Part shown: positions 1 to 41,615 of the stretch, in pieces
Layout: each line of letters starts with the position of its first letter
Position numbering within the stretch: position 1 is the first letter of the stretch
Origin: Amoebophrya sp. A120
Taxonomy: Eukaryota; Protista; Dinoflagellata
NCBI GenBank assembly: GCA_905178155.1
Contig: CAJINV010000019.1
Location: forward strand, 154,982 to 218,981
Reading direction: 5' to 3'
DNA: 64,000 bases
Program-made: the position numbers and the translations under genes
The notes under the pieces: generated by a model
Told to the model about the DNA's origin: nothing
The model's input: the letters and a program-made list of their open reading frames with translations, nothing else
Database searches by the model: none

Positions 1-230
1 GTACTCGTGCTTGTTTCCCTTCCTCCGACGCCCCTGGCGGCCTTGGTCTGTTGTATGTAGGGCACGCGGTTCGCCCGTGCGCCCGCAGCAGAACCAGGCC
101 GCCCCCGTCCGCTGGCGCCTCCGGGCGCTGGCGGGCGGGCCGGTGAGGGGAACAGAGCTGCGACGTGAGAAGTACTCGCGCTTGTTTCTCTTCCTCCGAC
201 GCACGCCCCTGGCGGCCTTGGTCTGTTGTA
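1..230. repeat. Direct repeat of about 56-59 bp, period 171 bp
   Basis: gtactcg(t/c)gcttgtttc(c/t)cttcctccgacg..cccctggcggccttggtctgttgtat occurs at 1-56 and 172-230. Confidence 0.85.
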
Positions 231-1689
231 TTTAAGAAGAGCCCCGCAGTGAAATGAATGGGCACGGCCGACAAGTGAACACGAAGACACTATCGCCGCC
301 GTTCCATCGCGCACGTACTCCACTAGCGCAAGGCCCAGCCCCACTCCTGGCCTGTGAAGTGTTTGCTTAAATGTGCGACGATTGCAACATCTGGAAAGAT
401 CAGTGCCCAGCTTCTTCGAAAAAGCTCTTCCTGAACGCAAAGACTTTCCGTGTCTGGGTCTGTGTCTATTCTTTTGATTCGAAAGCAAAACGATGAAGCT
501 CACCACACCGAAACGCGCTGACGTTTTCGCGTGAATTTCTTATCTTTGTTCGCGAAAAGCAAAAGAAATAGAGAAGAGGAGGACGATGGTGATCCGCAAG
601 AGAACGGACGTCAAGGCGATCAAGTATGAAGCGACGCCGATGCAAGTAGATTGATTTACTTTCCGACTCTTCGCGAGTATTCTCGTTGACGTAATTGCTA
701 AAAGGCCCACGGCTAGACACTTGCTCCGCGTATTCTCTTGGGCACAATAATGCAGGAAAATTACAAAAGAAAGAGAAGCAGCACTATGCAGCTTCGCGAG
801 ACGTACGCTCCGCGAAAAATGAAAAATCCGCACCGTTGCAGTTCCGTGAGAATCGCTCTGCTTTACTCTTTCAAAAAAGCGCGACTATTGTGGGCGAAGT
901 TTCGCCGAAGATCTCCGCGAAGTAGTAGTGATCAAGAAGAATCTGAAGAATAAAGAAAAATAAATAAGATCAGGCGCCTGCTATCTAGAATCGCAATAGC
1001 ATGCAGCCAGCTCATAAAAATCGCACCGCTCAATCATCTCCGCCGTTCTCTCAAAAACCAACTGACATATATGAACAAATCACATCTATACTCGTAGGCA
1101 CTCACAGCAGAGGGCCGGTCCTTTCTAGAGCAAAAACCCTCGCCATTTTCTGCAGCAAACGAACAGGACAAAGAGGAAAACCAATAAAGAAACAGGAGCG
1201 AGCTAGTTCTTTTCAGTATTTAGCAGCCCATGCCCGATAAGCCGCGCCGTTATTTTCGACTTGTAGAGAGTGAAGAAGCATTACAGATTTCATTCATTTC
1301 CGTTTTCTTTCGTCTCTGTGAAATTGGTCGCATCTGAGGAGGTTTCGACTTGCCCCGTATTCCACTACGTCTCTGCAATAAAGACAGACAAGAAAGATGC
1401 CGCGCCCGGGTGCGAAAGCGAAGAAAAGGGCGGCGGCCAAGGATGCCGGCGAGATATGCAATGCGTGCGTGCCTGGGTCTGTGCGGGTTCCAGCTCTGTC
1501 ATGCATGGCCTGCCTGGCCCTTGATGTTTGACGCGCATGACTTTGCATCTTTTGCATTTTCTCCGTTGTTCGTTCGGTGCGGCTTCTTGTAGTCCCCGAC
1601 TCTATTGCGAGCATTTGCAACCAGACAGGCCCAGGCTGCCTTGCTTTTGATATTCGACTATCAAGCGGGACACGAGATACGGGCCGCCG

Positions 1690-4037
1690 AAAAAGGGCCC
1701 GCGAAGCGGCAAGGGGGACCAAGCAGGGAGCTCGTCTGAAGGTATCCAGCGGCAGCCTCCTCCGCCAGCCTCGGCAGCCGCCGCAACAGCCACCGCAGCA
1801 ACCACCGCAGCAGCCACCGGAACAGTTTCGAAGAGCGCGCCCCAAGGTATTTGCTTAAATATGTAGCCGCCTGCCCCTCGGTGGGTTGCTTGTTTGTATG
1901 AATTCGCTCGCGGTCCGACGCTGTGTTTTGTGCGTGTGCCCATGTAAAGCCTTAAGACAAGAGGCCCTACGTATATGCCTCAGACTATGCTCAGCGTTGA
2001 CGCAAAAGATCCTACGCATACGCCTCGGACGATGTCAGCAAGCCTTTCCATTTCTCGTTATCAGGTAAGCGAAACGCGCCTCCGTCGGAAATGGAGCAGC
2101 CAGACGATGCGGGGCAAATAGGTAGCCAGCGACGGCCGCCTCCGCCAGCCTCGGCACCCGCCGCAGCAGCCACCGCAGCAGCAGCCGAAACAGTCCCGAA
2201 GAGCGCGTCCCAAGGTATCTGCTTGAATGTGTAGCCGCCTGCCCGTCGGTGGGTTGGTTGTGTGTTCGAGTTCGTTAGCGGTCCGTCGCTGTGTTTTGTG
2301 TGTGTCGATGTGAAACGAGCCTTATAACGAAAGACCCTATGCGTATGCCTTTGACTATCCCAAGCGCCTACGCTAAAGATCCTACGCATACGCGATGCCA
2401 AGCTTTTCCCATTTCTCGCTATCAGGTAAGCGCCACGCGCCTCCGTCGGAAGTGGAGCAGGAAGACGATCCGTGGAATACTATTTGCCAGGCGGTTGCAA
2501 TTATCGCGCGCAAAAGTGTCGGAGTCTGGAGGCAAGGAAGTTTGTCATGCTAGCTTCGTTAATATGGCGCCTCCGATTGTTGTGCATATTACCCAAAAGT
2601 CCCGGCGTTCTGATTCTACTGTCGCTCAAATTTACAAGATTCCAGACCCGCACACTTTTGCAATCGATAGAAAAAGAAAAAGGGCCGCAGTTGAACACGG
2701 GGACGGTCATCTTTTGCGCCAAGTGCCAAGGCCAGGGAGATTGGTATAACATTCCGGAGCCCGATCTCTCGCCGCCCCTCCTGGACAGCGACTGGTGGTA
2801 TCCGACCCGGAAGGACACCGAGTGGAGTGGTAAGATCGGGCGGATGAAGTTTGCCTTCCTCCCGAAAGTGGACAGCTTTTACAGGCTCAGCCCCCTCGAC
2901 GACCGTTACGATGGCTGGAGCGAGCGGTTTCTCAAGGAGTTGAAAACCAAGCAGGACGCTGACCGCAGGCAGTTCGGCTCGCAGTGCGCCGTGGTTGTCC
3001 GGTGCGAGGGCGTGGCGCGGGGGAAAGGGCGGGGGCTGTGTGGCGACGACTACACCTGGGTGTCGGGTGTTCCCCTGTTCGCGCGCGGCGGCTGGGAAGA
3101 TGCGGGGGCCCGGGCACATTACTCAACAACCTGGGAGGCGAAGGCCACGTGGCAAAAGGCCGGACAGGTATGCTCGTCGCCGTTTTCGTTTTGTGTTTTA
3201 TTTCCCCTCCTGCATGGTGTTCCTTGCGTTGCAATATGTCGCGCCGCGTTCATGTCTCTGCCTGGCTTCTATCCTTTGGCTTGCGTTTGTGCTATTCCCA
3301 TGCTGTGCATTATCCCGACAGGTTCACACGGACTTTCAGCATGACGAGTTGAGGCGCATCCTCGGGCTCCGAAGTCGTCAGCTGCGGCTCCCCTTGGAGA
3401 AGCAGTGCTATTTCGCGGGGACGGGTCTCGGGTATTGATTTTGTTCGTTTTTTTGTCCTGCATGGAATGGCATAGGCCGGCGGTTGTGGTTCGATTGATA
3501 GTCATGTCTCCGATGCTCTGCGGCAGTCGCGCGCACTTTTTATTTTGCATTCTCGTGCCTGAGAGTTAGTTTTCTCGATGTCATGTGCTATCTATTGCGC
3601 CCAGGTTTCGCGGCCACCAAAAAACTTTGCGGCTGCAGAAGGACGGGCACTGCTTTCGCGCCATGTCGGAGGAAGCCAGACTGGAGGAGCGGCTGGTCGG
3701 CAAGACGACCGCCTTCGAGAAGGAGCAGGCGTTCAAGGAGAGGGAGCTGCGGCACATGGTGAGCTCCTGGGGCACTCTCAGCGAATGCGGTGGCGGCATG
3801 CCCGAGGAACTGCAGCGAGAGATGAGCAGCCTGAACGATGAGCAGTGGAAGCTGGCGAAGGAGATCCGGAAACTGTCGGAGGAGCTCGGACGGCGCAGGT
3901 TCCCGGACTATGAGGATGCCGCAAGCGGGGAGGACGGCAAAAACGACCGAAGTGGCAAAGATGAGGAAGACGAAAACCCGGAGGACTATATAATCAGATG
4001 GCTGGAGCTCGAGGAAAAAATAAGAGCACGCGACTGA
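1690..4037 (+). CDS. Multi-exon hypothetical protein of the element (Ala/Pro-rich repeats, CxxC motif, coiled-coil/acidic C-terminus); start uncertain
   Basis: GC3-rich coding segments within ORFs 2472-3344 and 3585-4037, separated by T-rich GT-AG-like introns. No family recognised. Confidence 0.45.
1741..2461 (+). repeat. Tandem duplication of an approximately 360-380 bp exon+intron module
   Basis: 1741-2101 and 2121-2461 share cctccgccagcctcggca..gcagccaccgcagca..gaagagcgcg.cccaag|gtat and ..tatcag|gtaagcg..cgcgcctccgtcggaa.tggagcag. Confidence 0.85.
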
Positions 4038-4764
4038 TGTGGTTTTTGAGTCTTGATAGGATTACATAGCTGGTTACTTACGTAAGTTGATGGATGGAAT
4101 ACGAAGAGAAAGTGGCGCGGATGTTCACGAATTGAATCCAAGCACTTGACTGAAGTGGTTTTTGAATCGGTTGGATTGGAAGAGCCATGGACTATGGGTT
4201 TGATTGGAAGATCCATTCAGGCGGACACCTGCCGCCGGATTTTTCCGCTTAAATCAGGCTAAAAAATTGCTAAAAGCAAAAGACTAGGCCCCCGGCGGCG
4301 TTTCGTCAGTGCGCGCGCCGGGCCCTGGCTTTGTCCCATGCCTTGCGCCGTGGCCGCGCAGGCATTGGGCCGGCCACCTAGCATCCCCCGGGCTTTGTTT
4401 GCCCTCCCTCTTTCAGTTTTGCTCGTCGGTGGCGTTTGGGTTCTCCCTGTGGGGTTTCTGCGTTCTCATGGCTTGGCCGGGGCGTCGCCAAAGCAGTCCA
4501 GTTCCATCCTTTGGGGCCGCCGCTACGTCCGTTTCATGGCGGATCGCCAGCAGCGGCATTTGCCAGCCGCCCGGAGCAAGGAAAGTGCTCCAAGCAGGAC
4601 AGCGCCTGGGTGAGGCCCGGGGCGACCCTCTTTGGCGGGGGAGACGTCGTCTGGGGTGAAGGTGTTTGTTGTTCTGCTCGGGTTGTTTTCTTGCTTCGGA
4701 CGGCAAGGTTGCGGCTCCTCCGGAAAGGGCCGGAGTTGGGTCCGGAGTTGGTAATTTTCGGCAC

Positions 4765-5001
4765 TGCTAAAATCGGGATTTGGACTGCTAAAACGATTGC
4801 TAATTTGAGTGCTAAAATGCCTGACCCTTGAAAATCGGAACGATTTTCAAGTTTTGGCATTTTAGCACAAAATTAGCAATTTTTTAGCAGACACTTTAGC
4901 ACGGATTTTAGCAGACGAAAACTGCCGCGGCGGGATGTGGTTCCAGGGGATTTAGCAGTGAATTAGCACTGAATTAGCAGACTTTTAGCAGAATTTTAGC
5001 A
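4765..5001. promoter_or_regulatory. Dyad-symmetric iteron array around a hairpin; candidate replication origin or protein-binding array
   Basis: TGCTAA at 4765, 4786, 4798 and 4810. Perfect 11-bp stem CTTGAAAATCG-GAA-CGATTTTCAAG at 4827-4851. TTAGCA at 4862, 4873, 4884, 4896, 4908, 4952, 4963, 4974, 4985 and 4996, spaced 11-12 bp within each block. Confidence 0.6.
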
Positions 5002-6326
5002 GACCGGCCGCCCCCCCAACATCTTGTGAAACGGGGGGAATCGTTGGTGTTGGAGGGGCGATCGCAGGGTCGGGCGTTCGGGAAGGTTCTATGGGAAGAA
5101 CCGCTGCTCAAGTCTGACTGGTCATTCGGGGCGCGAATTGGTGGCGCGCAAGTCCGCCGTCGGGGAGGTGTTTCGGTTTCTCCCGCCCCAGCCCGTCGTC
5201 CTTCCGCCGGCCGGCGCGCTTGCGAGGCCCGCAAGGGGGCCGGCGCGCAAGTAGGCCTGGCCGGGTTTTTCTGAAGGGGCGCCTGCCGTCGCCTCCTTCT
5301 TCCGCCTCGCCTGTCTTCGGGCCCGGGGCAAGGCGGTCGTCTTCCCTTTTTCCCGGTTGTCGCGCGTGCTTCCCGTGTTGCTTTGGGGAAAAAAATTTTT
5401 TAGCACTTTTTCAGCAGCTTTTTAACGAAAAAGCCCGGCGCCCTTTGTCCGCCTGAATCCATTTGGAGGAGTTGCTGGCCATGATAGATAACGCGAACGA
5501 ATGCGATTCCTCGCCATGGACTGAATTAACCCAAGAAGGAACAAAGCCAAAAACTCGCCGCGCTCTGTGTGTTCCGTGCCTGGAAAACAAACCAGGAGCA
5601 GCGTTTTCGTGTTTTTCTCGATCATACAAATGCGCAAAAGACATCGGCTCGAGAAAGTTCGCGGCCTGCACTATTAGACACGCTGGGAAATTAATAGTGG
5701 TCCAAGAAATGCGCTCGCTTTTGAGGCTGTCTGCACTTTGACAGGTGGCAGCTCCAGTGACGAGGCAGGCCAAGAAGCCCTCTCAGACAGTGAGTCACTT
5801 CCAGAGATCCCGCGAGCGGTTTCATTCTCAGAGACTTCACGTCCGTCAGCCAATTCCAGAGATTTCGTCTCTTCATCTTGTAAGAGCCCGCCTCCTTGAA
5901 AATGATGAGGAGAGAGATCCTGCCCGCGGCAACATAACAAGAGAACGATCAAGATCGACGAGCTTCAGAAATTATCTCCCCATCCAGCCGACGGAGATCG
6001 TCCCTAGTAGAGAACGCAATGCCTTGGCGCGGCTGGCCATCTATCAATCTGATTCCCAAAACAAAACAGGAAGAGTGGCGCTGTGTCTGTTTCTCCGTTG
6101 GTTAAGCAAGCGCATTCCATCAGTTCCCTCGCTTATATTATTGCATCCACTGCTATTGTTGCACTATATTGCGCAACCTAAGCTGTCCGGTTATTATCTG
6201 TCTTCATCGCTTTGCTCTGCGTCCGTCTGCATTTCGATAGTTTTTGACTTCTATACTCAGGCCTTCACTTGTATACTCAGACTGATAGCGATTTCTTTCC
6301 TCGCTCGTATTATTTCTATACTCCGA

Positions 6327-7549
6327 ATGGCGCTTTCTGCGAACATGAGCCCGCTCCCCCCATGCGTTGCGAACGCCCTCGCGGAGGCGCAGAAGACAAT
6401 CAAGCCCCGGGGCGACGTCGTGGGAACGCCGGTGCTTGGTAATGGGTTGGGTTTGGCGGATGGGGCGGGGTTCCAGCCGCCGATCTTCCCCGAGCTCATT
6501 TGGGACCCGCGTCAGCGCGTGTGGCGTGCGTGCCCTGTTATCAGGAACGGCGACTGCTGGTATGCCGGGGCGCTCTCCGGTATGTTTTTGGCTAACTCGC
6601 ACCAGCAGAATTTGCGCGCTGGCTAACTTAACATCCATCGGCCGCGCACCGTCAGAATTGGCAACCTAGCTGCGTTTTCGGTGTATGCCTTATATAGATT
6701 CCCTGACTCTTTAGCGCGTGCCATCAGAATTGACAAACTAACTCGCCCAGGTTTGCTGGACCACCCGAAGACCACCGCGAAGCGAACGAGGCGCGAGGTT
6801 TTGGAGACGATCTGGCCCGTGAATTGCTACCAGCAAACACAGGAGCTGATCAACTGGCGGGAGACGCTTCTGGAGGATCCGCACTCCCCTGCCTATGGAT
6901 CCGCACTCCTGGTATTTGAGAGAGCCACCCACTTTTTTCCGGCCGGCCGCTTGTGCCGCAGCTGACTGCTTGCAATAGGTTGCGACCCGAGACAGCCCGT
7001 TGTATATAGTTGCGAGCATTTGCGAGATCTCGACGCTGTTCATTTTTCGGGAGACGTAAAAAAACTAAACCAGGTCGGCGCGGCTGTTCTCCGAGCGCGT
7101 GTGCAGGGTGCTGAGGCGAAAGCGAAGGACTCTGTTGGTAAGCCTTACTTAGCGCGCAGCTGCTTGGGGACCGTTGTGCTTTTTGTTATCTTTGTCCCGC
7201 CTCTAGCTTGCTTTTCAACTGTAGCGATTGGCTGCGTGCATGCTAGTGCAGCGGCCCTGTGTGTGTCGTCCCTCGGCCGGCCTTTAGATTTATTCACTCA
7301 GAAACTTGCTACCTATCAGGTGACAGCGTGATGGAGGCGACGGCAGAGCTACTGCGGATCCGCATCACGATCCTGTACTCCGCGGACGCCGACGATGCGG
7401 AGCGGAATGTGGACCCGCGCGACATCGGTCCGCCCGACGCGCCCGCGGCGCTTCAAATGTGGGCGCACGACTCCCACTTTGACTTGGTCGAGGAGGACGT
7501 GGTGGAGATCGACTATCTTCGGGAAAGCCCCCCGCCCCCTAGGGAGTTT
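6327..7549 (+). CDS. OTU-like cysteine protease domain (spliced); may be the N-terminus of the helicase-polymerase polyprotein
   Basis: Phase-compatible GT-AG exons 6327-6579, 6751-6911, 7074-7137 and 7320-~7549 give PVIRNGDCWYAGALS ... GDSVMEATAELLRIRITILY ... WAHDSHFDLV. This resembles the OTU Cys motif (DGNCLFRALS) and His motif (HYD). Confidence 0.55.
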
Positions 7550-7880
7550 GTTTGTTATGCAGCCCGGCGCCCGTGGGTCTTTGTGATGCAGCTTGCCCGG
7601 GCAGAGCGAGACAGACGCTCCAGACTGATATTGGGCGGGGGGGGTTTCAGCTTCATACCAATTGCACGCAAATTGTTACGCCGGAAGCCGAAGGAACGCA
7701 AATAATTACGCCGGAAGTCGAGGTACTGTCGTAGTAGATTCTTTGAGGCATATTGTCGAGGTATATTCTTTGAGCCAGCTATATATAAGCAGCGCGCATT
7801 CTCTGAGCCAGCTAGAAGCGGCGGGCGTGCTTTGTTTGAGCCAGCTAGTGGCCGAACCTTTTGCCGCAATCACGTCCCAG

Positions 7881-10800
7881 GTTCCGTCCCATTCTCAGAA
7901 AGGAAGCGGAGGCCGCCGGGCTCCGCCCCCGCAGAGAAGCCGCGATCTCCGCCGCAGGCCGCCGAGCGTCATGGTTCTCGACAGCTCCCAGAGCCCGGAC
8001 ATTGATGACCTTAACCACTTTCCACCGCTCGGGCCTGCGAAACAGAGCGCGCCGAAGGGGAGCAGCGTCGCCCGTGGAGGACAGGTAGTTTTGCTGTTGG
8101 GCACGTGTTGCATGTTGTTCGTTAATTGTCAGTCCCTATCTTTTGCGCCCTTAGGTTCTGATAGATCTGCGCCGATTCACTCACTTGGTTTCCCATTTTT
8201 CCACAGGCGCCTCGCCCGGCGCGTTTGTCTCCGCCGAAGCGGAACGACGGGAAGGCGGCCCCGGCTGAGCGACTGGTATCGGTTTTGCTAAAAAGTTAGT
8301 TTGCTGGCTCGGCTAGTTTCCTTGGCTCGTTCTTTTCGTGCAGGCCAACGCCCTTGGGTCTATTACCATGCGCGAATATTCTTAAACAGCTCCCCGCCGA
8401 GGGCAATACCCCCCGCCGGAGCAGGACGCCGCGCAGAAACCCCGCACTGGACCAGGGCTTTCTCCACATCGACTCTCCGCCGCTTGGTCTGTCTCCGTCC
8501 CCGCATGGCGCGCCGCAGGTGCTCCGCGACTACGAAATGGGCGTCGGTGGCTTCGGCCCGGCGGTCCAGGACCCAGACTCCCCGGCCGTTCCCGTCGCAT
8601 CCGCCCCGGCTCCGCCGGGCTATCCTCGGAGCGGCCCCTCGGCACCGCAGGCCAGCAGCTCGGCGCCAGGCGATCATGCTGGCGACTCCCGCCCCGCTGA
8701 TGCCCGGGGCGCTGCTCCGGACCCCCTGCAGCTTCCCGCGGGGCCGCTGCGCGAGTTCCTCACGGCCGCCCCCGACGAAAATGATGCGGCCCTCCTGCCG
8801 CCGAAGCGTCCCGAGCATGTGCAGGAAATGCTGAACAAGATCGACGCGGCACACGCGGACCTGAAGCAGCGCGCGCTGCCCGGGACAGTCGTGGACCAGG
8901 TTTACGCCCGCGTAGTGGTCGTCGCCGACCTCTTGAGTAGCCGCGTCCGCGGAAACGCTGGAGCCTATGAGCCAGACCTGATTCGTGACATCCTCGCGGC
9001 GATGGGTTTGGAGCGGACTTTCCGCGCCGAGCCGGGCGACTTGTTCTCGCGCTATGACCCGACCAAGTCCGGCGCGGCCGGGACGGCGAACTGGTGGAGG
9101 CAGGAGTCGAAGAGCAAGTCCGAGTCTTTGCACACGTATTTCTTTGCGCGGGATTTCGGAAAAATCCACCACGCGGCGGCGTTTCTTCTTCAGAAGGCCT
9201 ATGGCCAGGACGTGCAGCCGAGTTTTGCGGACATTGTCGCCCAGAATTGCTGCGGCTGGAATCTGCGGGCCTTTCTGAAGCACGCCTCGGCGGAAAACGT
9301 AAGAAGCACGATGGGAAAGCAGAAGCTATCAAGTGCAAAAGTGTCTGGGCCCGGAAGGGTGCGGTCTGTCATGCTAAATCTGAAGCATGTGGGAGCCTGC
9401 TTGCCCTGATAGATTACCAAAAGCATTCCAGATGGACTTGCTTCGTTTTCCCTTGCCCTTTCAGGCCCACACGCCTTTGCGTTCGATAGTAAGAATACGG
9501 AAACAACATGACGCAGGGCTTCACGCAGGGCGTAAGCCAGGGCCTGGTCGAGTTGATTGAGTGCCTGAAGAAATGGGAAGAGTCGTACAGAACGGCGGAC
9601 GCGAAGGTCCTGCAATGGTTTGCGATCGACCGGTGGAGAAGGCCGGGGCACGCATTTTCCGACGGTTCGCTCTGCCGGGGCCGCGGCAACAAATTCTGCT
9701 GGATCCCGCGCGTTGACCGGGCCGACGCGGATTTCCGCGATGACTACTTTTACGATGGCTGCCACATGGACCTCCAGCCGGATGCCCCGGCGAACCTGAA
9801 CGAGCTGCGGGCCTTCGAAAAGGAGCTCCGCAAGTATTTCGGCGGCGACCCGCACGTGCTCTGTGTCTTCATCATCGCCGCTGCGATAGTTTTGCTCGGT
9901 GGGGCCCCTAGTCGGTGGCTGTATTGTTACAACGCCAGCGGCTTCGGCAAGACAACTTGGAACGCGTTTCTGGCCTGGGCGATCTCGCCGAAGAATCAGA
10001 CGGAGCACCACGCGTTCTCTGCGGAGTGGCTTAGCAGTTCGGACCTTTTGCGGGCCGCCGCCTGCGACATTGCGCAAGCAAAGGTGACCGTCACGCCTGA
10101 AGTCAGCAAGCCCTTCAACAACCTCTACATCAAAACCGTTGTCGACCCTGTCTGCAAGGTGGAGGCGCGAATGCTTTACAGTGATCCCGTTCAGCTTTGC
10201 CTCGCCTATGCCTTGCGGCTTTTAGAGTCGAACCCTGATGACTGGAAGACGTTGCACCTCAAGGAGCTTCCCTCGGACTTCGTCGCTTATTTCTCGCGCA
10301 TCATCATCCTAGCCAGGCAGTCCGGGGCCTTTACGCGCAACGAGAGGAACGCGAACAAGACCAAGGCAGAGCAGAGCTACATTAGTAAACTGCAAACCGA
10401 GGCCAATCGCAGGCAGCTCATCCGGCTCGTAGTTGCGTACGCGTCGAAATGGGCGGCCTTCAGCGACGTCCCAATCATGGAGATGCTGCACGATCTGAAC
10501 CGTCTCGACCGTCTCCTGGGTGCCCATTTTTTTGCAGACACTGGCAACTTCTGCTACGATGTGCTTCTCAAGGGCCAGCTTTCTCAAGCTGAGCGCGACA
10601 AAGAAGACGTGAAGCTGGTGCTGACGCAGCTCGCAGCGTATAACGCGAACGCGGAAGTCCCTGCTGGTGCAGAGAAAGCGAGCGGAGGGAGTGGCGTGGT
10701 TTCGGGTTGCTCCTGGGGGTGGGAGAAGGACCAGAAGCTCATGGGGAACGACAAGCCCGCGGCGCAGCAAAAGCAAGCCGTTCAGAATCTGGACGCGGAC

Positions 10801-12450
10801 GGGTCCTGGTTGCGCTCGCAGGTTTGGCAGCCACAGCGTGGGAAGTTCGACGGCGCCGGGCGGCCCTACCCGAAGTTCTTTGCTGCGCAGGTGCGGAGCC
10901 GCGTCCCGCGCTTCTGGGGCAAGCGCGGGCGAATGCGCGGCGGCCCCTTGCCAGTTAATGTCGACGGCCTCCAGTTCCACCGGGCCGTTTTACGCGCATC
11001 CGCCGCCGGCGAGCAGGACGAAAACGAGCGCGGCAAGGAAGTTGCCGAGCGGGTCCGAAATATTTCCACGATGCTGGAAGAAAACTGCGGAGCCGACGGC
11101 ATGCACCGCGCTGCCTTGGCCTGGCCAAAGTTGCTACTTGATGGGGGCGAAGACGTGCAGAAGATGGGCTCACGCAGGTACGCCGCCGGGAGTGTTCAAG
11201 GAATCTCGCAGGCCGGGCGCGGGGCCGGGTTCTACAGCATCACGCCGGGGCAAACATTCGGAGAGGTCGACATCAAGAAGAGCCACCTGCGGTGCCTCGT
11301 CGGTGTCTGTGACCGCATTTTCTTCGGTTCAGTGGTTGGGCCGCCGCCGCTTGCTGCGCTCCGCCGCTACCTGGCCAACCCGGAGGAGGTCCACGCGGAG
11401 GTGGAGGCCGACGCGGGCTTCCAGGTTTTGGGGATCAGCGCGAAGGAGCTCTTTCTGCAAATTCTGTACAAGGCCGGGAAGCGCAACACGGAGATGCAAA
11501 AAATCTCCGCGAGGTCGGTCCTCCTCTTTGCAAGGGATGTGGCGACTTGCGTGGAAATTTTGCGGCAGGCGCATCCGCCTCTCGTCGCCTTTTTCGAAAA
11601 ACGGGCAAGGGAGGAGAAGAGAGGCCCGCAGGACAAGTTCTTTCGCGATCCGCTTCCATCGTTGCTGTCGTATTTGATGAACGACGAAGAAAATGCGATC
11701 TGTTCCTCGATCGAAAACAAAATCCGCGACCTTGGCCGCGAAGGGGTCGAGACTTTTCCAATTTACGACGGCGTCTTCTGCAATCTCGACCTCCTCCCGG
11801 CGGATTTTCTTTCCAATTGCGTGGAGCAGATTGCCATCGAAATGGGGTACGAAGTCGGCCTGAAGCTCAAGCCCCTGGCACCTGCCGGCTGGATGGTTTC
11901 GCCGTTGCACCGCCTCCCCGCTCTCCGCGCGGTGCAGCTGAAGGGGCCCGGTGGAAATAACGCAAGCGGCCCAGCTCCGGCGCACCCGCTTGGCTGTTTG
12001 TTGCACCAGGTCGGCCTGGACCACATGCAGTTGCCCTCTGGAGGACCGGGCGCGACCGCCAACGAGCTTGCGGGCTCGTTTGGCTTGCACCTGAAGCACG
12101 TGGCCTCTGGGTTGCAGCTTCCGGAAGAGGGAGCAGCGCGGCACTTCGTCCTCCAGGAGATGGCGGTCAGTGTTTCCGGCCCGGGCGAAGTTCCGGCCCC
12201 CACCGCCGTCTGGGAGGGAGAAACCGCGCGCCGCTGGTGGATCGTGGACTTTATTGGTGACGAAAACGCGGCAACTGTTTTCTTCTCGGAGGGTTCGGCG
12301 GAGGTTGGCGGCGCAGGCCTCGAGGCCCTTCGTGGTTTTCTCCGTGGAAATGGCGCGCTCATCGTCTTCCAGCAGGTCCGCCCGGGCGCGGCGCAGCAAG
12401 ACCCGGAAGAATTGCCTGAAGGAGAAGTTTATAGAATTACAGCGCATTGA
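7881..12450 (+). CDS. D5-like SF3 helicase fused to a C-terminal family-A-related (TVpol-like) DNA polymerase/primase
   Basis: Exons 7881-8084, 8207-8275, 8390-~9325 and ~9493-12450. Helicase motifs: Walker A NASGFGKTT (9931-9957), Walker B VTVTPE, D5-type IKTVVDPVCKVEARMLYSDP, motif C LLESN, Arg finger FSRIII. Polymerase motifs: SRRYAAGSVQGI, motif A EVDIKKSHLRCL (D at 11269), motif B AKELFLQILYKAG (K at 11443), SLLSYLMNDEENAI, motif C PIYDGVF (D at 11767). Confidence 0.75.
9327..9488. mobile_element. Degenerate family-A introner inside the helicase-polymerase gene
   Basis: Left end TATCAAGTGCAAAAGTGTCTGGGCCCGGAA, right end TTTCAGGCCCACACGCCTTTGCGTTCGATA. Removing 167 bp (element + 5) fuses ORF 8354-9409 in frame to ORF 9508-12450. 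Confidence 0.65.
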
Positions 12451-13354
12451 TCTAGGTATGAAGCAGGAGTCCCCTGCGCATATTGGTGCACTCAGACTCG
12501 GAAACTGTTTACGTCGTGTTTACATTACAGGCCAACCTTTCTTATCTTAACCCACACTCGGAAGTTGTTTACCTCATTTTTTCAAACTTACGCAGCCACG
12601 CGCGGAATAGGCTCGCGCGTGGCCTGTCCTTTCTATAAAAACGCAGAGAGTTTGTATCGAGCTAGCGGCTATGATCGTCAGCATCAATCTGACCAAGAGC
12701 ACGCAGACTAACTATGGTCGTCAGCATCTATTCAAGAACCAAGGTCGAAAATAATAAGAGAAGCGATACCATTGCGAGAAGGAATATGCCAAGGGATGGG
12801 CGGCACATGTCTCGGAAGAAAGCACCGCGCGAGCCCGCGTTCCAGGTGCCCGCGAAAAAAGCCGGCGCGGAGAGAGGTGTTCTGTCTCCGACTATGTATA
12901 GGCATCAGCCTGGCGGAAATCGCGGCGAGATCTGCTCTGAGGCAAGGAACTGCAATAGCCCGCGCGCCGTAAATAAAAAGCCAGCGCGATGAAAGTCGGG
13001 AGATCAGAAAATAGCAAAAACAAAAGCGATCCCCAATATATTAAGTTCCTCCGTCGCTGAGTTTCGCTGTGCTTAGAAAATGAAGCAAGGAAAGAAGGGC
13101 CATGAGCATGATCAAAGAGGTTGGCTTTGCTGAGAAAATCACTCAAACCCATAACACAGGGACGAGCTTCATCAAGATTGGGACGCTTTTTAATGAGAAA
13201 GAACCTTCGCGATTGCTAGGCCCGCTCTTACCCCCGTAGTTTGTTTAGTTAGAAAGAATTTTCGCGACTCTCTTTCCTGTCTTCTCTGTGCAATTTATAC
13301 ACATTGTCTAGATTTCTGCGCGCACACTCTCCCGCCTTCGCTGAACTAACAACA

Positions 13355-15900
13355 ATGAAGCGCGCGAATGTTGCCCAGCAAAACGCCAACCGGAGGGCGG
13401 CTGCTGGGGACCGGCTGCCGGCCCTGAACTTCAGCCCGACCGGGAAGAAGCAGCGGAAGGACTTCCCCTACAAGCAAATCACGCGCGAGGCCATTAAGGA
13501 CAAGGTAAGTCGTTGTAAGTAGCCCGCCTTGCTGCCGTTGGCCGTTTTTTCCATTCCTCTGCTGCTTTGGGTTTGCGATCTTTGTCGATCTCTTATGGAA
13601 CGAGATAAAACCACTCAAACAGCTCTGGTTTCGGGAAACCACACGCAAGAGGACCAAGGAGGCCCACGCCTGCAGTCTGTGCGGCATCGTCACCGACGAG
13701 AAAAAGTACGTCGTGCACAACAAGCAGACCCACGAACACCTTTTCAACTCCTGGAGGTGCCACGGTAACTGCCCGGCGCCCTACAAGGGGGACATGCAGA
13801 AGCTCTTCGGCTGCAAAGATTACAAGAGAGAGGAGGACATCTTTTGCTATGCCGCGCCGCTCGAGGGATCGGAGAAGCACGCCTACAGTATTGCGCTAGC
13901 CTGATGCGTGTTCCTATCTTTTTTCCTAGCAAGCTGCCGCGCCTGTTTAGTTTTTCAACCCGCTAGCGGAAATCTTCAAAACAACGAAAAACCCCCGGCA
14001 TCAGGTAAGTCCGGGTATGTCCATGTGACCGCCGCGCAGCTGAAACTGCGACAGCCCAAGCTCCGCGCTGACAAGTCTCTCAAGCTCGACGAGATCACGC
14101 GCCGGGAGGCGAGCGACCTGGTGAAGATGTTTTTCAGCAAGGCCCAGACCAAGCCGGACACCGTCCTGAAGTGCCCGAGCTGTGGCAAGGTGAGGCAGAT
14201 CAGGGAGGTCAGTAGCGCGGGCGCCTCGTTGCACTGCAGCAGCTGTGGCACGGCCGAGGCGTTCAATCTGTTCTCTCCACCTGGCCCGGCTGGCGGCGCG
14301 CAGCGGAGCACGCTGTCAGTGGTGGACATGATCCGGGTCGTTCGAAGCTTCGCGTATGGGGACACGGTGGATCGTGCCTGCAAGGACCTGAGTATATATA
14401 CCCACCCTGTTTTTTTTGGCCCTGGAGCCTTGCTTTTTGTGCGGCCGGGGGTCGCCTGGTCTTGCGGTTGTTTCGAGAAAAAGCGACGAGATTCGGCGCC
14501 TTAGCGAATTCAATCGTCCTCAAAATTTTTCAGATGTCGGGCACGCCACCCTCAAGGAGTACTGGAGCAAGCTCGTCAAGGCGGCCGCGGCCATGTACCT
14601 GCAGGGCATGGCGGGCGTGCGGTTTCCCGGGCGCGTGTGTTTGGAAGCGGATGAGGCGGCCTTCGGGTGCGTTACGAAGTTGGTCGCCGCTTCGCCGAGC
14701 AAAATGGGCAAGGCCAAGGCCGCAGCAGGCGCCGCCGGGGCCGCGAAGGCTAAAAGCGCCGCGGTGGAGCAGGAGATGGAAAAGGAGTACACGTCGCGGA
14801 TAATTCTCGGCACAATGCAGCGGGGCCGCCCCCTATGACAGCGAGACTTCGCGCCGCAGTCACATCCGAGGCATTTTGTGCGGTGTTCTCCCTTGCAAAA
14901 TGTGTCCGGTGTGACTGTGGCGCGCAGTTTTCCCTTCACACCCTGAGACGCTGCTCTTGTTCGACCTCGGCCACCAGCCGACGCGGCAGCACAGGCGATT
15001 CCGGCCGGTATGTTCTTTGGTTGCTTTTCCTAAGTATGTTGGTGCGCAGGTTCCTTTGCTTTCCGGGGTGCCTATTGGGTGCGGTTTTCCGTCACCTCTT
15101 TCATCGGCAGGCATTGTCGCAATTTTCCCCAACAGGTTCAGCAGAAGATCTGGCGGTGGATTTGGAAGAAGAAAATCGAGCCGAAGCTGGAAGGGTTGCA
15201 CCACGAGGACGGGCACATCTTCCTTGCCACAGATTCCGCAAAGTGCTACGAGATAGCGGCGCCATATACTGTATAGCTTTTCGCGTTTTTTTGTCTGTGT
15301 GTTCACCTTCCTCATTTGTAGCCTGCCGCCCATCTTCCAGGCGTCGGCCTTTCTACTTACCCAACCAACTAAAACCCCGCAGCACCTCCAAGTCAATCAC
15401 CAGAAGAAGGAATACTGGAAAAAGTTGCGGGACGCCGATGAGATCCCGCACTTCGGCAACAACTGGATGGAGTGCGTGTGGAAGCACATTCGTCGCCACA
15501 TCAAGGTACCCGCGGGGCGTACAGCCTTCGCTCTTTTCGCTTTTTGCCTCTTTCCATCTATGCCGTGTATGTTGGCGATCCCGTTGCCCGGCGCGGTCGC
15601 TGTTTCTTTCGACGTAAATTGACCACCCCCAAAATACAGGCGCGCTTCTCCGGCTTGACGCGTTCCCTCCTCTTGGAGAAGCCGGATTACGTTTACATGG
15701 GAGCGTATTTCTGGCGGAACGTTCTGGAGGTGGATGAAGTCGTCAAGGAGTTCATCGCGCAGCTCCTGCGGCCCAGCGCCGACACCTCCTGCGCGATCCA
15801 GGTCCCGCCGGACGGCTATGGGCCGGGGGACGAGGTTTCCTCTGACGATGACGACGCGGCCATTGTCGACGACGACTCCGATACCGATGAGGACAATTGA
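13355..15900 (+). CDS. Merlin / IS1595(ISXO2)-family DDE transposase with N-terminal zinc ribbon, multi-exon; one apparent +1 frameshift
   Basis: CPSCG..CSSCG ribbon; VCLEADEAAFG (D 14650; cf. VEIDES), IILGTMQRG, FLATDSAKCY (D 15232; cf. SDxWxxY), HLQVNHQKKEY (cf. HxxVNH), GNNWMECVWKHIRR (E 15470; cf. TNxIExxWxxxK), YMGAYFWR (cf. YLxEFxWR). GT-AG introns, e.g. 13505-13622. Linkage of the first two exons is less certain. Confidence 0.8.
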
Positions 15901-16309
15901 GCCGCTCGGGCGGGCCTAGAGAGGTCGCGAGCGTGTGCCCCTCCTCCGCCGCAGCGGCAGCCATCCCGGTCGCCTATCCATCGCTGTGAGGAGTCGAAGC
16001 TTGTAGAGAATTCGCTAACTTTTCTGCTCTCATCGTTGTGGTGTGGGCTTTTCATCTATTTTCGCGCGCCCTCGTTTCGGAGATTTTCACTTATTGTCTA
16101 CGTTCGTCATTGCTGCCGTTCTCGCATCTCTTCGCTCATTATGTATTCGAGAAACTAGCCGCCATCTCTTGCGATGTTGCTTCTGCGTCGTGTTCCCCCT
16201 ATGGGTGGACCTTGTTCGAGGTATACTAACTGACCAAACAGCGGAAGCGCTTCTGCTTACGCCTGTCGTATTGATGCCAAAAGCGGAAAAGCTAAGGCAG
16301 GGCCTCCCT

Positions 16310-16725
16310 GCGGCTTTTCGCGTTTCGCAACTCTGGCGGTGTTCGTAGCTTTCGCGAAAGAAAGACGGCAAGGAGCCCGATGGCGTACCTCGGTCGCTGT
16401 TTCTCTGTCGCTTTTCGCGTTTCGTGTTTCGCAGTACTGGCGGCGTTTTCGGCTTTCATAGTACACGGAAACCAATGAGCCTAGTGGCGTACCTCGGTCG
16501 TTGTTTCTCTGTCGTTTTTCGCGTTTCGTGTTTCGCAGCACTGGCGGCGTTTCCGCCTTTTTTAGTATAACAAAAGCAATGAGCCTAGTGGCGTACCACC
16601 GTGAAAGTTCCCGGTCGCTTTTCGCGTTTCGCATTTCGGGAGCCGCCTCCCCCTTCTCTTTGCTTACTATATTAATTATTTAAGGAATAGGCTTTGTATT
16701 TCTTTCGCTTTTCGTGTTTCGCAAT
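16310..16725. repeat. Imperfect tandem repeats of about 100 bp (4-5 units); probable subterminal repeats of the element
   Basis: (g/c)ttttcgcgtttcg recurs near 16313, 16410, 16513, 16617 and 16707; tggcgtacc(tcggtcg) recurs near 16381, 16484 and 16588. Confidence 0.75.
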
Positions 16726-16763
16726 TCAAGCAAGGAGGCCAGCTACTCTCACACTTTACACAA

Positions 16764-16790
16764 CACACCCACACACACACACACACACAC
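16764..16790. repeat. (CA)n microsatellite
   Basis: cacacccacacacacacacacacacac. Confidence 0.8.
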
Positions 16791-17060
16791 CAAAAACGCC
16801 CCTCATGCTATCGCTTTCTTCTATTTTCTGTGTTCCGAAGGGATCCGCGTTCTCACCAAATCACGATAGTAATCCAAGCCGTTGCACTTGTTGCAGGTAA
16901 AAAAAAGGTAGGTGTTTCGCCTTTAATTCTGCTTATTTGGCCGCGTGCCAACAACAACAACATCGTGATGATGCTTTAGTACGGTTCATCAAAAAAGCTA
17001 GTTTTGAAGGTATGACAAGAATGTTGATGACACGTATGGTGCCCGTGGGCATGCAGATGC

Positions 17061-19650
17061 TCATGCAAATCGACATCGAAATCTAGATTTGGTGGCATTC
17101 GGTTCCATCCGTACTTCCAAAAATTCCAGTTGCTCCTTCGGGTCCAATTCCTGAACGGAGATTATTGTGTCGTGGTAATCCCACACCCCCGGAAACTTAT
17201 GGTCCTGTTCGTCAGGCGTAAACAGGAGGGAATTCTGTGGAGGTGGAGGACGGCCGTCATAATCCTGGCCAAAGTAGCGTCCTCTGGAAAAACTACGTCC
17301 CCGGGACCCCACAGTCAAGACTATGAATTGCAAAAGCATCGCACTCGTATAAATGCATTACAAATGTCTCAGCATGAGAAAATTTGTAATGCTGATCTAA
17401 ATCAAGAAAAAGATTTGTGATGCATGATTGCAATACGAGTACGATACAGTTGCACAGGATAAAGACGCGAGCTCTGCTACAGATAGTATGCATAGCTACA
17501 TAGCTCAAGAAGTTTTTCTCCGTCCACGTCGTAGGCGGGGACGTGCACGACAAACGCCTTCCTACGGGAGTCGCGTAGATATAGTTTGTGTTGACTACTC
17601 ACTTAAAGATGAAGGAGTGAAGATCGAAAAACACGGTATGCTTGGATGCGCTTGAGAGCGCGCTCATCGATCATTAATTCAATACTGTTATGCAAGTATT
17701 GCAGCGTCTGCGTCAGCGTCACAACTCTTACTTTTATCTTGCCGCCTCCAAACCGGGCATGTATTTAAACTATTCGCAGTATCGCGTCGATAATGGGAAT
17801 GGGTCAGGGACGGACTGTTCACACAGGATAGCATGTCGCTCACAACTATCCTGAGAAAAAGCGTACGTACCCCCTCGTGGTCCTATGCTATGGTCCAAAG
17901 TACACAAATGAAGCAACGCTTGGGAGAAGTCATGCATGACAGAGCCCGGCGCGGGCGGGCTCGCAGCAGGAGCAGCAGCTGCTGGTGACTAGCTAGTATT
18001 ATAACCCCGGCCGCATCACAAACTGATGAACACCCTTTGCTCATTAGAGCATGCAACCTTGTTCTGAACGAGCATCAAGAAAAATCCCTCTCACGCGAAG
18101 CCGCATTAAAAACTCTCCTCATGGTTGTCGTTGTACTTGTATCCCAGGCTACATGCATGACAAGTAAAAGTACGGAGAGGCGCCCACGTTTTTGAACAGG
18201 ATAGTCACCTTTTGCATCTCGGTCGGGAACGGACCCAAAAACGTGTCATCGTCAAAATTACCGCTTTATCCACTGCAACTGTGTCTGGGTCGGGATGATA
18301 ATAGTGGAGTTTGTCATGCCAATCGTACATGGCCCGCGAAAATGCCTGTGATGCATGCTCTAGCATCACCGCTCTAACGGAGCCGGAGGCTTGCTCGTGC
18401 CTATCCTTCATGAGAACTGCCCCCGCCTCGTCCGGGCGGTGGCAACAGTCTGAGTGCCTTTTGCTGCTCATGCAGGCCAGGTTTTCCCATGATCGAAAGT
18501 TAGTAAACACAAACGCCATGCTTTTCAGACCCAGACATATTTGCAATCCATACATTTTCTCCGGGAACGGGGATATCGAAGTTATCTGCTGAGACGAAGT
18601 CATCTGAAATAAACTTCTTCCGCCCTTCCCCTTCGCGTAGTTCTTTTTTTTCTTCCGTACCTTGCTGCTGCGCAACTTGCTGGTGACTTCGTCCCTGTTC
18701 TACTTTTTCTCGTTGTGCTTGTTCCTTTTTTCCACCTTCTCTCTCCAACAACGTAGAACTACTGCTCTCTTCCGCTGAGGCACGACGAAACTCGGCTTTT
18801 TTCTCGTTTTCCTGCGCCTTATAGCCTGCTCAGGTTTTACGATCTCAAACGCTACAATAGAATAATGGAAATCTGTGATGTTAGAAGTGCATTATCTACC
18901 CAACTCTCATAGGATTGCACATGACAAGCTCCGGCGTCCCAAACCGCACTACAATCCGGCAAAATTTGTATATGCAGAGAGTGGAATGCTGTCCGAGTCT
19001 GTCTTGCTCGTCATGCAATACGAAATCCAGATTCTATTGTAAACGTTTGAGATTGTAATGTATGCGCAGGTCATATTCCTGTGTTCGTTCTTCTAATGTG
19101 GTTTTCATCATCTCTTCGGCTTTTTCATTTTCCAGAAACGCCGAGCTACTCGTGCTGGACGGAGGCGAGAAATTTTGGTCTTGATGAAGAACTGCTGGCG
19201 CGTCCTGCTCGGCGGAGTCGTGTCAGGTCGCGGTCGTGCTGCTGCTCGAAGATGATCCTGTGATGCCAGCAGCCGCAGCTTCCGCTTTGTTTTGTCTCAC
19301 TTCTCCTGTCGGGCGCCGATCTGTTTCAGGCGGCACAGCCGCGAAGGAGGAATCCTCATCCACAGAAGATGCGGGGTCGGGGTCACCTGTACTAGCAGGC
19401 GATACAACTCGACCTGATACTTGCGAGCTAGATTCCGCTTTTTGAACTTTGTCCTTCTCGACCCGCAGCGCAAAGACCAGAAACGTGGTGGAGGGAGCCG
19501 GGGCAGGTTGGAAAATCCTGCTCGCGTTTGATGTGCTGGTGAGGTGCTGCACACTGGAGGGGGCGGACCGCAGTGTCTTGTACTCGGACATCAAAAGGTC
19601 CTCGATGTGGTTCTCCTTCAGTAGTTGTAGATGAAAAAATGATTCGAAAG
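17061..19650 (-). CDS. Hypothetical multi-exon host gene interrupted by introners; boundaries uncertain
   Basis: Removing introner 17322-17461 plus one TSD joins ORF 17293-17553 to ORF 17061-17339 in frame (ARV|LTVGSRG). Further coding-like segments extend to ORF 19223-19834. Confidence 0.35.
17322..17461. mobile_element. Family-B introner
   Basis: TATGAATTGCAAAAGCATCGCACTCGTA...TACGAGTACGATACAGTTGCACAGGATA; TSD aagac/aagac. Confidence 0.85.
17847..18203. mobile_element. Degenerate family-C introner
   Basis: TATCCTGAGAAAAAGCGTAC...CACGTTTTTGAACAGGATA; TSD not conserved. Confidence 0.5.
18267..18552. mobile_element. Degenerate family-A introner
   Basis: TATCCACTGCAACTGTGTCTGGGTCGGGA...TTCAGACCCAGACATATTTGCAATCCATA; TSD degenerate. 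Confidence 0.7.
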
Positions 19651-20822
19651 CGGCCAGAAGGACTGCAGTGCAGGAGGCGAGCAAAAGAGCTAAATTCCAT
19701 TGTTGAAGACGAAAGTGCGGAGCAACGTGGCGCAGCACCCGCGGTCGTACCACGACGCAACAAGAAAAACTCCGCGGGGGACGGCCACGACGCCGGCGGT
19801 TGTACACGATCACGCTTTGGTCCTCACCCAACATCGTTTCTTCTTTATTCTTAGTAGTAGAACGCCAACTACGCGCGTCGGTGATCGAAGAAAAGTAGGA
19901 ACCGCCCGTCGGGGAACAAGAGCTGAAACGGGTTGTGGTCAGAGGAGCCGCCGATATAAAGATTACGAAGTGGAGGCCGCCGCGTTATCAGTCGTATCGC
20001 CCGTTACTGACAAGGTCGCACACAAAATTGTGTCGTTCTTGTATTAGTCCAGGGACTTCTACTAGTCCCGCACCACGGCGACGAGATGCAATCCGCTGCG
20101 GGAAGAGCGTAGGTGGCCGCACGATAAAAAATCGAAGTATAATTCCGCCAAAATGTTGACTCTATTTCAACACTCAAGTAGCGAACATAGCTCGTTAGGA
20201 TATTCATAGGGTATAGCGAATCAATCAAGTGTACTTAAAATAAGCGTGCTAGCCAAGACCAGATGGCTGGTTTGTGGCGGACTGGAAGGAACTTCTCCCA
20301 CACACTCTCAGATTGCTGACACTCAAAGTATCCATCTCCCTCCAGCACTTCTGTTGAATACAAGTGCGCCCAAGTATCGCCTCAAGAAGTAGAACCACAC
20401 AAAAACAGACGGGAAAACACGTGTTCTACCTGTTGTACAAGAAGACACCTCAAGCCATTATTAGTTTTTGTTTCCCTACCCCTCATCGCACTCCCTTGCA
20501 AGAACATCCCACTCGAAGGTGATAAAACTTGCCACAGGAACTACAGACATGGGAAATGACTGCAGCAGCACACCAGGAAGAGGAACCAAACAAGTTTTGC
20601 ATTTGATTTCATTTCTCTGGTCGTGCATAGTCTAATTATTGCGTCACCCTCAGAGGTTATCTTGATCTTACGATACATTAGCGAAACCCGGTTTGTTCAT
20701 GTAGTTCATTTGTTCTCAGAGTCACAACTGTCGTTAGATTTTCATCTTTCTAGAGAAGTTCATGTCCAGGCGTGCAAAGACACATCAATCCGTGTTTATT
20801 CATGATGAGGCCCGCACCTTGT

Positions 20823-40467: not shown

Positions 40468-41615
40468 GGTTGGTTTTGTATGCAGGAAATTCAGTCGCCG
40501 GTTGTACCTTCTGTGGTGGAGGAGGAGTACGAGAATAAGTTAAGGCTTCTTTGGCGGTAAATGCTACTGAGAAGGGTCGTGGCACAGAAACAAGCAACTA
40601 CTACTCATGGGACTTCCTTGTTTCCAGTCGATCACTACTAGGTGCGGAACTAATTCGGAACGATAGGGGTCACCTTCGCTAAAGGCATGCTTTCAATATC
40701 AATTATCATGTTTGTTTGTCGCTTTGGCATGATGGATGTGAAACATGTTGTGCGTACAGGTATATTTCTATGCTACGGCGGAACCGCTGAAAAAAATGAA
40801 TTGGTTTTTGTTTTGTATATTCGGTCTGAAGCCGCGTCAAATTCCAAATACGAGGTAGGTTTGTTTTTGTTTTTATATTCAGATCGGTCAGAGAATTTCG
40901 TTGCGCCAGATGTAGAAAGATCACGACGAAAGAGTAGGGATCGGAAGATTACGCATAGCGCGCCGATGTCAACATGTACGTATCAATCTGAACTGCATCA
41001 TCCTGGTACGCGAGGGCAAGATAACTAGTGTGTGAAAAGGATCTGAACAAACCAATTATTTCCACGCATTCGGAAGTAGATCTTTCAAGGAGGAGCCTAG
41101 TGTGTCTACGAGAGCATGATGAACATCCTTGAACAATGTAATGGATTCAGTTGTTCTAGTTGCATGGAACGCAATGGCTGAGCACCTTTTCCCAGCACAC
41201 AGTGATGTAGTAGAATGGTCATGTCAAGGTGAAGGACGTGATCGATATCATCAAATTCTTGAAATAGGTTTGGAAGTTATAATGTTAAGGAACTGTTCTT
41301 AGCCCGGACAAAAGTTGCAAATTTCAACTTCTTCGCGACCACCTGGTGCTGCTGGCAAGGTACCTGATAGATGATTCCACTCAGTTTGATTTTTCGTGAG
41401 GACCCATTCGAAAATACAGAGTTTCTGACGCAAGAAGAAAACGAGATAGATAATCTTTTCCTGTGGGGTCGACAGAGATAAATCGAATTATTAAGGCATG
41501 AAAGCGCATGGAAGTAAGGGGCACGCAAGGAGTTCACAGCAGCCGAGGCGGATCATCAAATTTGCGTATGTTGAGTCAATGTACTTACATCTCGTCCTCG
41601 TTCCGTCCTCATCTT

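Follow-up and report, generated by a model that had tools for sequence, protein, structure and literature searches.

The left end of a 64,000-nt stretch of the Amoebophrya sp. A120 genome (contig CAJINV010000019.1, positions 154,982 to 218,981; here called the window) is occupied by a GC-rich block (1-16760), in which a helicase-polymerase gene (the replicase gene, 7971-12450) is followed on the same strand by a gene for a DDE transposase (13355-15900). It is fairly probable that these two genes make up the core of a single family of self-synthesizing DNA transposons without a capsid, which has long resided in Amoebophrya-like parasites. In the gene models, splicing leaves both frames open and the catalytic residues are kept; the same ordered pair occurs in Amoebophrya AT5.2. 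The single-unit idea came from an earlier interpretation of the letters alone (the sequence-only reading). As far as sequence comparison carries it, the idea is strengthened by the pair order in AT5.2 gene g6326, and by a two-copy depth of DNA contigs across the replicase-transposase junction.

Replicase and transposase genes

The transposase gene (13355-15900, plus strand) was modelled as eight exons encoding 560 aa, guided by the AT5.2 homologue (P0003). The predicted exons lie at 13355-13504, 13623-13887, 14005-14391, 14534-14827, 14940-15007, 15136-15270, 15383-15505 and 15640-15900, and the frame is open across six GT-AG introns and one non-canonical hairpin intron (14828-14939, with 33-nt inverted arms at 14846-14878 and 14896-14928), the register of which was taken from the homologue. 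The catalytic triad D307/D421/E463 is encoded at 14650, 15232 and 15470, and a C4 zinc ribbon starting at 14172 (aa 195-219) aligns with that of IS1595 proteins.

Against a profile of 40 non-redundant IS1595 proteins the predicted product scored 14.2 bits (best of 100 shuffles, 6.8). These proteins came from 109 viral loci gathered by a motif, and three of three tested pass Pfam DDE_Tnp_IS1595 (PF12762). HHalign matched the two-member transposase family to IS1595 (95.7%, E 1e-8) over 243 columns that include the zinc ribbon and the three catalytic blocks. On these comparisons, the predicted product of 13355-15900 is an IS1595/Merlin-family transposase with D, D and E kept. Described Merlins are without the N-terminal zinc ribbon that bacterial IS1595 carry (PMC8101967), so that 'IS1595-family, Merlin-like' is the safe label, and not typical Merlin.

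The replicase gene (7971-12450, plus strand, ~1360 aa) ends 904 bp upstream of the transposase gene. Its open spliced model has three GT-AG introns, between predicted exons at 7971-8084, 8207-8275, 8390-9332 and 9494-12450, and the product is ordered as an unassigned N-terminal region, an SF3 helicase, a PolA-like domain and a C-terminal region of ~220 aa. The SF3/D5-type (DUF5906-like) helicase domain was placed at 9600-10400 (limits approximate) by HHalign and by its neighbours in the Atlas, where residues 1-800 of the large replicase exon adjoin viral DUF5906 proteins (0.93). Its motifs, which we take to be the Walker A Lys (9949), Walker B Glu (10099), motif C Asn (10231) and a candidate Arg finger (10297), include Lys, Glu and Asn residues that are invariant in all six family members. 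The helicase half matched the DUF5906/D5 half of viral TVpol proteins by HHalign (91.5%, E 8.5e-7), but scored only 4.5 bits in a single-sequence hmmsearch (best shuffle -3.0).

The TVpol-type family A polymerase domain (11020-11910) was recognised by profile, HHalign and predicted fold. It encodes the hairpin Arg (11176), motif A Asp (11269), motif B Lys (11443) and motif C Asp (11767), and the minimal PolA core (R937, D968, K1026, D1134) is present. The Arg of RxxxK is absent from the window polymerase and from several viral rows, and is present in the relatives P0001 and P0003. For comparison, 97 viral loci were gathered by a TVpol motif; of four that were checked, three carry DUF5906 and the fourth a PolB. 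HHalign matched the polymerase half to the viral TVpol N-terminal PolA-like domain (99.1%, E 9e-19), and a profile of 59 such domains gave 23.8 bits for the window protein (best shuffle 0.5) and 67.3 bits for P0003. An AlphaFold2 model of the domain reached a pLDDT (predicted local confidence) of 87.7. All of the PDB structural matches listed for it are family A polymerases (Z up to 12.8, root mean square deviation 4.1, 249 aligned), and the best viral matches by Foldseek in BFVD include the replication proteins of Zamilon (E 5e-9) and Qinghai Lake virophage (7e-8). Folding of the 985-aa replicase exon as a single sequence gave no usable model (pLDDT 35). No family match to a fused proofreading nuclease was found in the scanned exons, the N- and C-terminal regions of the replicase not being reliably folded. 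On these sequence and profile matches, the predicted replicase combines a helicase of the SF3/D5 type with, after it, a family A polymerase of the TVpol type.

Both gene calls of the sequence-only reading, a complete D/D/E Merlin-type transposase and an SF3/D5 helicase and PolA-like gene some 0.9 kb upstream, have held up, IS1595 and D5/SF3 being supported by HHalign, and TVpol/PolA by HHalign and structure matches. At 10793, both DNA runs have T at full single-copy depth where the window has A, which would change Asp to Val in the replicase linker; this may be an assembly error or a strain difference.

Relatives, copies and the case for one unit

A HMMER search of 1.84 billion representatives returned five replicase relatives (P0001 to P0005) at 25-29% identity. 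P0003 is Amoebophrya AT5.2 g6326 (1661 aa). It aligns to the replicase (aa 314-990, 21% identity, E 1e-13) and, with its C-terminal third, to the whole transposase (33.7% identity, E 1.6e-82), including the unusual N-terminal extension, so that both modules stand in the same order as in the window. In P0001 (a single 1561-aa record on a 7.8-kb contig) the helicase-polymerase runs on into a further domain (aa 1040-1490). The Atlas neighbours of that domain include several clusters of Mutator-like elements (0.81-0.89, under the 0.9 mark), and it is possible from these neighbours that it is a Mutator-type transposase. That the family represents a new eukaryotic class of capsid-less self-synthesizing elements, built on a helicase-first SF3-PolA replicase with swapped transposases (IS1595/Merlin in Amoebophrya, Mutator-like in P0001), is put forward tentatively.

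The helicase precedes the polymerase in the window and in all five relatives, whereas the polymerase comes first in 70 of 70 viral TVpol proteins with a helicase match (out of 97, many of the others being cut short), and polymerase-first is the rule for TVpol-helicase fusions (PMC2579912; 10.64898/2026.10.13.758929). The sequence-only reading had likened the gene to the TVpol-SF3 fusions of Sputnik and Polinton-like viruses (PLVs); this was right for the homology of both domains, but not for their order. In a quick tree with long branches, the five family polymerase domains included group together against 58 viral TVpols (SH-aLRT 99); P0005 was left out because most of its polymerase domain is missing.

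These comparisons bear on another possible origin of the block, as the right-hand portion of a larger endogenous virophage or Polinton-like virus whose capsid and packaging genes would lie to the left of the window or have been lost and whose integrase would be the DDE enzyme. The polymerase is closest to virophage and PLV replication proteins, and the two-copy region described below reaches the left window edge; OTU domains occur in preplasmiviricot replication proteins (PMC11161782), and endogenous PLVs are 15-30 kb long with a GC step (PMC10120064). Such an origin is nevertheless quite improbable. The domain order is opposite to that of the 70 viral proteins, no IS1595 protein was found in the 97 viral TVpol loci (in 80, up to 2.5 kb of flank was included; 17 were short), and locus searches found no relatives in viral contigs (IMG/VR). 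The block genes are rich in introns, whereas endogenous viruses are described as intron-free (PMC10120064). Capsid and packaging ATPase families, which the sequence-only reading had also failed to recognise, had no match in the exons scanned with profiles, the orphan products not being folded.

Locus searches in metagenome contigs gave no relative either. The one genome match (L240) was rejected, as it covers 37 aa in an archaeal contig and has no family profile match, as was the one match (E 1.3) of a PDB sequence search with alignment A1. Word-based searches with A1, the P0003 transposase region and an orphan exon returned nothing; these blanks are weak because the A1 search missed A1's own members. 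Among the viral loci, a 1556-aa frame (L078, IMG/VR) possibly combines two polymerase types: besides C2H2 fingers it has a TVpol-like motif (residue 714) and, at its C-terminus, a domain of protein-primed PolB.

Two sets of DNA contigs (X1, X2) from a single sample, which may be the source sample and would then not be independent, supplied the depths; summed depth is not equal to copy number. Host DNA, 5428-11688 and 13671-16644 lie at single-copy depth (43/22). The regions 239-4168 and 11659-12435 show 1.3-1.7x depth with ~1% other letters; two collapsed copies at 1% divergence are expected to give 1.73x. A stretch of approximately two-copy depth (11659-13700) runs from the replicase 3' end across the spacer into the transposase 5' end: the contig at 11659-12251 stands at 1.7x with seven other letters, and bins across 12007-13340 have a depth of 79-90 against 43 (~2x). 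At 16682, at the right end, depth is 3.2-4.4x, and the single-copy contig stops at 16644. This suggests a second partial copy, ~99% identical, across the replicase-transposase junction, and a right end in three to four copies. By its depth pattern, the second copy appears to join the replicase 3' end to the transposase 5' end and to lack both catalytic cores, and appears to be internally deleted, keeping the left gene, the junction and the right end. Five of the six variant letters listed for the replicase 3' part (40 of 194 variant rows being listed) change an amino acid, which would fit a copy in decay.

A deletion joint at a 7-bp microhomology (5471/11661) was rejected, as the contig break points do not fit. 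One X1 contig (depth 42.7) links 15204 to 8049 via 15 letters; it may come from a rearranged copy or match by chance.

It is very improbable that the block is an assembly artefact, or a pile of unrelated nested elements, for instance a Merlin on its own next to an element with the replicase only. In favour of this, no single short-read contig covers the whole block, one nested unit or more is present (4218-5455), and the ends of dinoflagellate Merlins may be very imperfect, with tandem repeats inside the element, so that the transposase's own ends could be missed. Against it, depth runs unbroken through 30 of 30 bins and is raised at the junction, no inverted ends were found in the window around the transposase alone, and the same ordered pair is present in AT5.2 at deep divergence.

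Several results weigh against the pair being one mobile unit. Neither terminal inverted repeats nor a target duplication could be seen around it in the window, and the sole match between left and right (17 of 18 nt, 553-570 against 16697-16714) is weak, 13 of 500 shuffles being equally good. At 90% likeness, both coding cores (5428-11688 and 13671-16644) remain single-copy, and the joints of the second copy are unseen, so that a segmental duplication or separate repeats fit too. The genes have many introns, some introner-derived, as in old or host-adapted genes. In AT5.2, the one-gene model of g6326 may be a merge of two genes, and in its transposase part Gly aligns with the third catalytic residue (window E463); Amoebophrya strains show 49-57% synteny with AT5 (PMC7789003), so that a conserved neighbour pair could be plain vertical inheritance. 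The records of P0002, P0004 and P0005 contain no transposase part, and a Mutator profile test of P0001 was negative, with a profile made from one sequence (1 of 12 loci usable). Pfam gives no match for P0003 and a reciprocal single-sequence transposase search matched weakly, in 1 of 74, so that the transposase family is very divergent; the corresponding helicase search likewise gave a weak match, in 1 of 97. The polymerase model was built on a 63-row alignment in which 58 rows are viral TVpols, and the fold thus tests the TVpol family, not the window protein alone, which is tied to the family by its profile scores. Of the claim that the block is one element, the conserved pair and the junction depth stand on one side, and the want of enclosing inverted repeats and the single-copy cores on the other.

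An old insertion that became fixed and domesticated would account for part of this: two cellular genes at one syntenic locus, their extra copies being local duplications, the pair perhaps serving host genome turnover, e.g., introner movement. Single-copy coding cores, the lack of termini, numerous spliceosomal introns, strong synteny among Amoebophrya strains and the loss of the third catalytic residue in AT5.2 all agree with it, as does the report of few transposases from Amoebophrya genomes (PMC7789003). It is unlikely given the sharp GC and GC3 step at the block, the near-identical partial copies and multi-copy right end, and the retention of all catalytic residues of both enzymes in the window copy. 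Distant relatives also occur in other samples, one of them with a different C-terminal partner.

Ends, other genes and surroundings of the block

The GC content of the block (1-16760) is 0.568 compared to 0.492 in the remaining window (1-kb bins, Mann-Whitney p=2e-7), in agreement with the sequence-only reading, and GC at third codon positions (GC3) is 0.75-0.83 in block genes versus 0.54-0.68 in six host frames. The common orientation of the block genes carries little weight because 83-98% of Amoebophrya genes sit in co-oriented blocks (PMC7789003).

At the left edge (1-238) are two direct copies of a ~60-bp repeat (1-59 and 172-234) with very high depth. Summed depth reaches 770 at 52-56 against the single-copy 43, i.e., a many-copy family at the window edge, and between 174 and 239 one contig differs in 32 letters. 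The left end of the unit is probably within 1-238 or to the left of the window. The candidate right subterminal region (16285-16760, plus strand) consists of five imperfect tandem units of ~100 bp, followed by an AC microsatellite and a drop in GC; one contig carries a variant extra unit. Likeness between the left and right repeats was not above that of shuffles (186 and 30 of 500). No Merlin-type inverted repeats starting with GG (24-462 bp) were found around the transposase or the block, the left end perhaps lying outside the window.

Between the left gene and the remaining genes lies a non-coding 1238-bp unit (4218-5455) with 61-bp imperfect inverted ends and a flanking 8-bp direct repeat matching at 7 of 8 positions (chance 6e-4 per register, seven registers inspected). 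Its hexamer repeats switch strand at ~4838, and depth across 4553-5091 is 2.8-3.4x, corresponding to ~3 or more genomic copies of the unit. It is likely a nested element resembling a miniature inverted-repeat transposable element (MITE). The sequence-only reading had described an origin-like dyad in the block. The dyad exists (4779-4920) and may have an origin role, but it is inside this unit, and the unit's own inverted ends, flanking repeat and ~3x depth suggest that it belongs to a separate small element. Short imperfect direct repeats, possibly regulatory, occur in an intron (6596-6743) and in the spacers before the replicase (7650-7860) and the transposase (12480-12730).

The leftmost gene (1397-4037, plus strand) is an orphan of ~505 aa and seven exons; its spliced model is open, and its non-canonical joins are not unique. 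The predicted protein has a low-complexity N-terminus, a Cys-containing middle and an acidic, coiled C-terminus. It has no Pfam match and no homologue by word-based search, a weak search. Its depth is 1.5-1.7x, with 19-31 other letters in 3147, and this two-copy depth makes it a putative part of the unit. An exon-plus-intron unit of ~370 bp is tandemly duplicated within it (1740-2475, ~79% identity).

Two introns of the orphan gene are degenerate host-type introners. One (1455-1651, ends approximate) is 65% identical to host repeat family D1, and its removal restores the frame; the other (2502-2669) has 43-nt inverted ends. A third overlies replicase intron 3 (9327-9489) and is ~80% identical to host copies over 50-64 nt. 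Introners are known from Amoebophrya (PMC7789003) and, with the AT5.2 relative, make a parasitic dinoflagellate of the Amoebophrya type the likely host; introner-derived introns at 1455, 2502 and 9327 argue for a long residence of the block.

A four-exon gene (6327-7705, plus strand; ~287 aa, 3' end uncertain) has OTU-like Cys and His motifs. The OTU-like protease call of the sequence-only reading was not confirmed: motifs resembling the Cys and His boxes are visible, but a profile built from 12 viral proteins with the OTU motif gave the spliced product -0.9 bits, a value that lies among those of 200 shuffles; HHalign reached 0.4%.

Host genes lie to the right of ~16,760 and are full of repeated introns that have inverted ends. 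Across 17322-64000 they are broken up by two or more abundant families of introners of this form, some of them nested (33957-34891), and degenerate copies are also present within block genes. On the minus strand are a host gene of the GCN1/EF3 HEAT-repeat type (28166-40543) and a calpain-domain host gene (58220-58966). A GC-rich island (24300-25150, 0.65) without an obvious coding signal lies just upstream of a minus-strand frame of 1096 aa that has no Pfam match.

An Rfam scan of 1-20000 returned no matches, and Pfam, PHROGs and NCBIfam gave no significant match for any exon tested, the best being a sub-threshold zinc ribbon. RNA runs X4 and X5 placed two and zero reads on the window, the host part being equally uncovered.

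Proposed mode of action and known systems

Terminal repeats are the substrate of IS1595/Merlin enzymes, whose insertions are flanked by 8-9-bp target duplications, and SF3 helicases are ring-forming unwinders. If the two genes work as one unit, the transposase would bind subterminal repeats (on the right, 16285-16760), excise the element and insert it with an 8-9-bp duplication, while the SF3 domain would form a ring and unwind the element DNA. The apparently exonuclease-free PolA domain, probably a primase-polymerase, would prime and extend, and host polymerases would finish. The analogy here is the TV-Pol member CCPol: together with a partner subunit it primes and extends DNA, though without high processivity, and the host polymerase is proposed to take over (PMC7581432). 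By starting replication of an excised or resident copy, the helicase-polymerase could raise copy number apart from host S phase, and internally deleted copies with retained ends would ride along.

No description of a eukaryotic helicase-PolA and IS1595/Merlin element was found in the full-text literature covered (title/abstract level, with Repbase and most subscription papers outside it), nor was one found in passages of PMC12166617, PMC12130899, PMC11161782, PMC10120064, PMC11453091 and PMC12005148. The proposed element is probably an undescribed variant of self-synthesizing transposon. The sequence-only reading had known of no description of the combination; within the literature covered this held for eukaryotes, but bacterial replicative transposons with a TV-Pol beside resolvases, integrases or IS630/IS605 RNase H-fold transposases were proposed by Iyer et al. 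in 2008 (PMC2579912). Since the logic was thus known, the Amoebophrya pair is a variant and not a new category.

Eukaryotic self-synthesizing integrating elements, in the sources cited here, use PolB with an RVE integrase, or PolA or archaeo-eukaryotic primase (AEP) primase-helicases mostly with tyrosine recombinases in capsid-coding viruses. If the transposon reading is true, a spliced, capsid-less PolA-helicase and IS1595/Merlin element would break this pairing pattern and add a reversed architecture to the known replicases. Iyer et al. proposed that Sputnik-like viruses descend from a TV-Pol replicative transposon (PMC2579912), and the window element would provide a eukaryotic example of such a transposon. 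Almost no DNA transposases have been reported from this lineage, which would then hold a transposase family too divergent for Pfam; this could bear on what moves the MITE-like introners of Amoebophrya. Should the new class be real, it would connect ordinary DDE transposons with virophages or Polinton-like viruses as a missing link.

Polintons/Mavericks resemble the proposed window element in having their own polymerase and a DDE integrase, and transpovirons are capsid-less (PMC11161782), as the window element would be. These carry a protein-primed PolB or pPolB-SF1 fusions and an RVE integrase (PMC11161782), none of which was found in the window: its polymerase is of family A, its helicase is of the SF3 type joined to PolA, and its DDE enzyme fits IS1595, the rve family having no match in the exons scanned. 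The PolA-S3H replicases of virophages and PLVs (Sputnik V13, Zamilon) share a homologous PolA domain fused to a DUF5906/D5-type SF3 helicase, but the order is reversed in the window, where capsid genes were not seen. For small eukaryotic DNA viruses, a 2026 preprint reports that PolA correlates with tyrosine recombinases and DDE enzymes with PolB (10.64898/2026.10.13.758929), whereas the window pairs PolA with DDE.

Merlin/IS1595 transposons have the same DDE_Tnp_IS1595-like core with three motif blocks, and internal tandem repeats; alveolate Merlins are known as divergent (PMC8101967). The window enzyme differs in its C4 zinc ribbon, extra N-terminal region and linked replicase, and in having no GG-starting inverted ends in the window. 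The CCPol-MP and Cch2 proteins of SCCmec are likewise a TV-Pol-family enzyme with a helicase on an integrating element, but they are bacterial, encoded by separate genes and in need of the MP subunit (PMC7581432), and serve here as a model for the mechanism only. The bacterial TV-Pol elements, proposed as replicative transposons, resemble the pair in a minimal PolA domain, exonuclease-free in them and apparently so in the window, and in a nearby resolvase, integrase or RNase H-fold transposase (IS630 or IS605 type); they are prokaryotic, their transposase-linked subset has an N-terminal helical domain, and their D5 fusions are polymerase-first (PMC2579912), whereas the Amoebophrya pair is eukaryotic, spliced and helicase-first, with an IS1595/Merlin enzyme.

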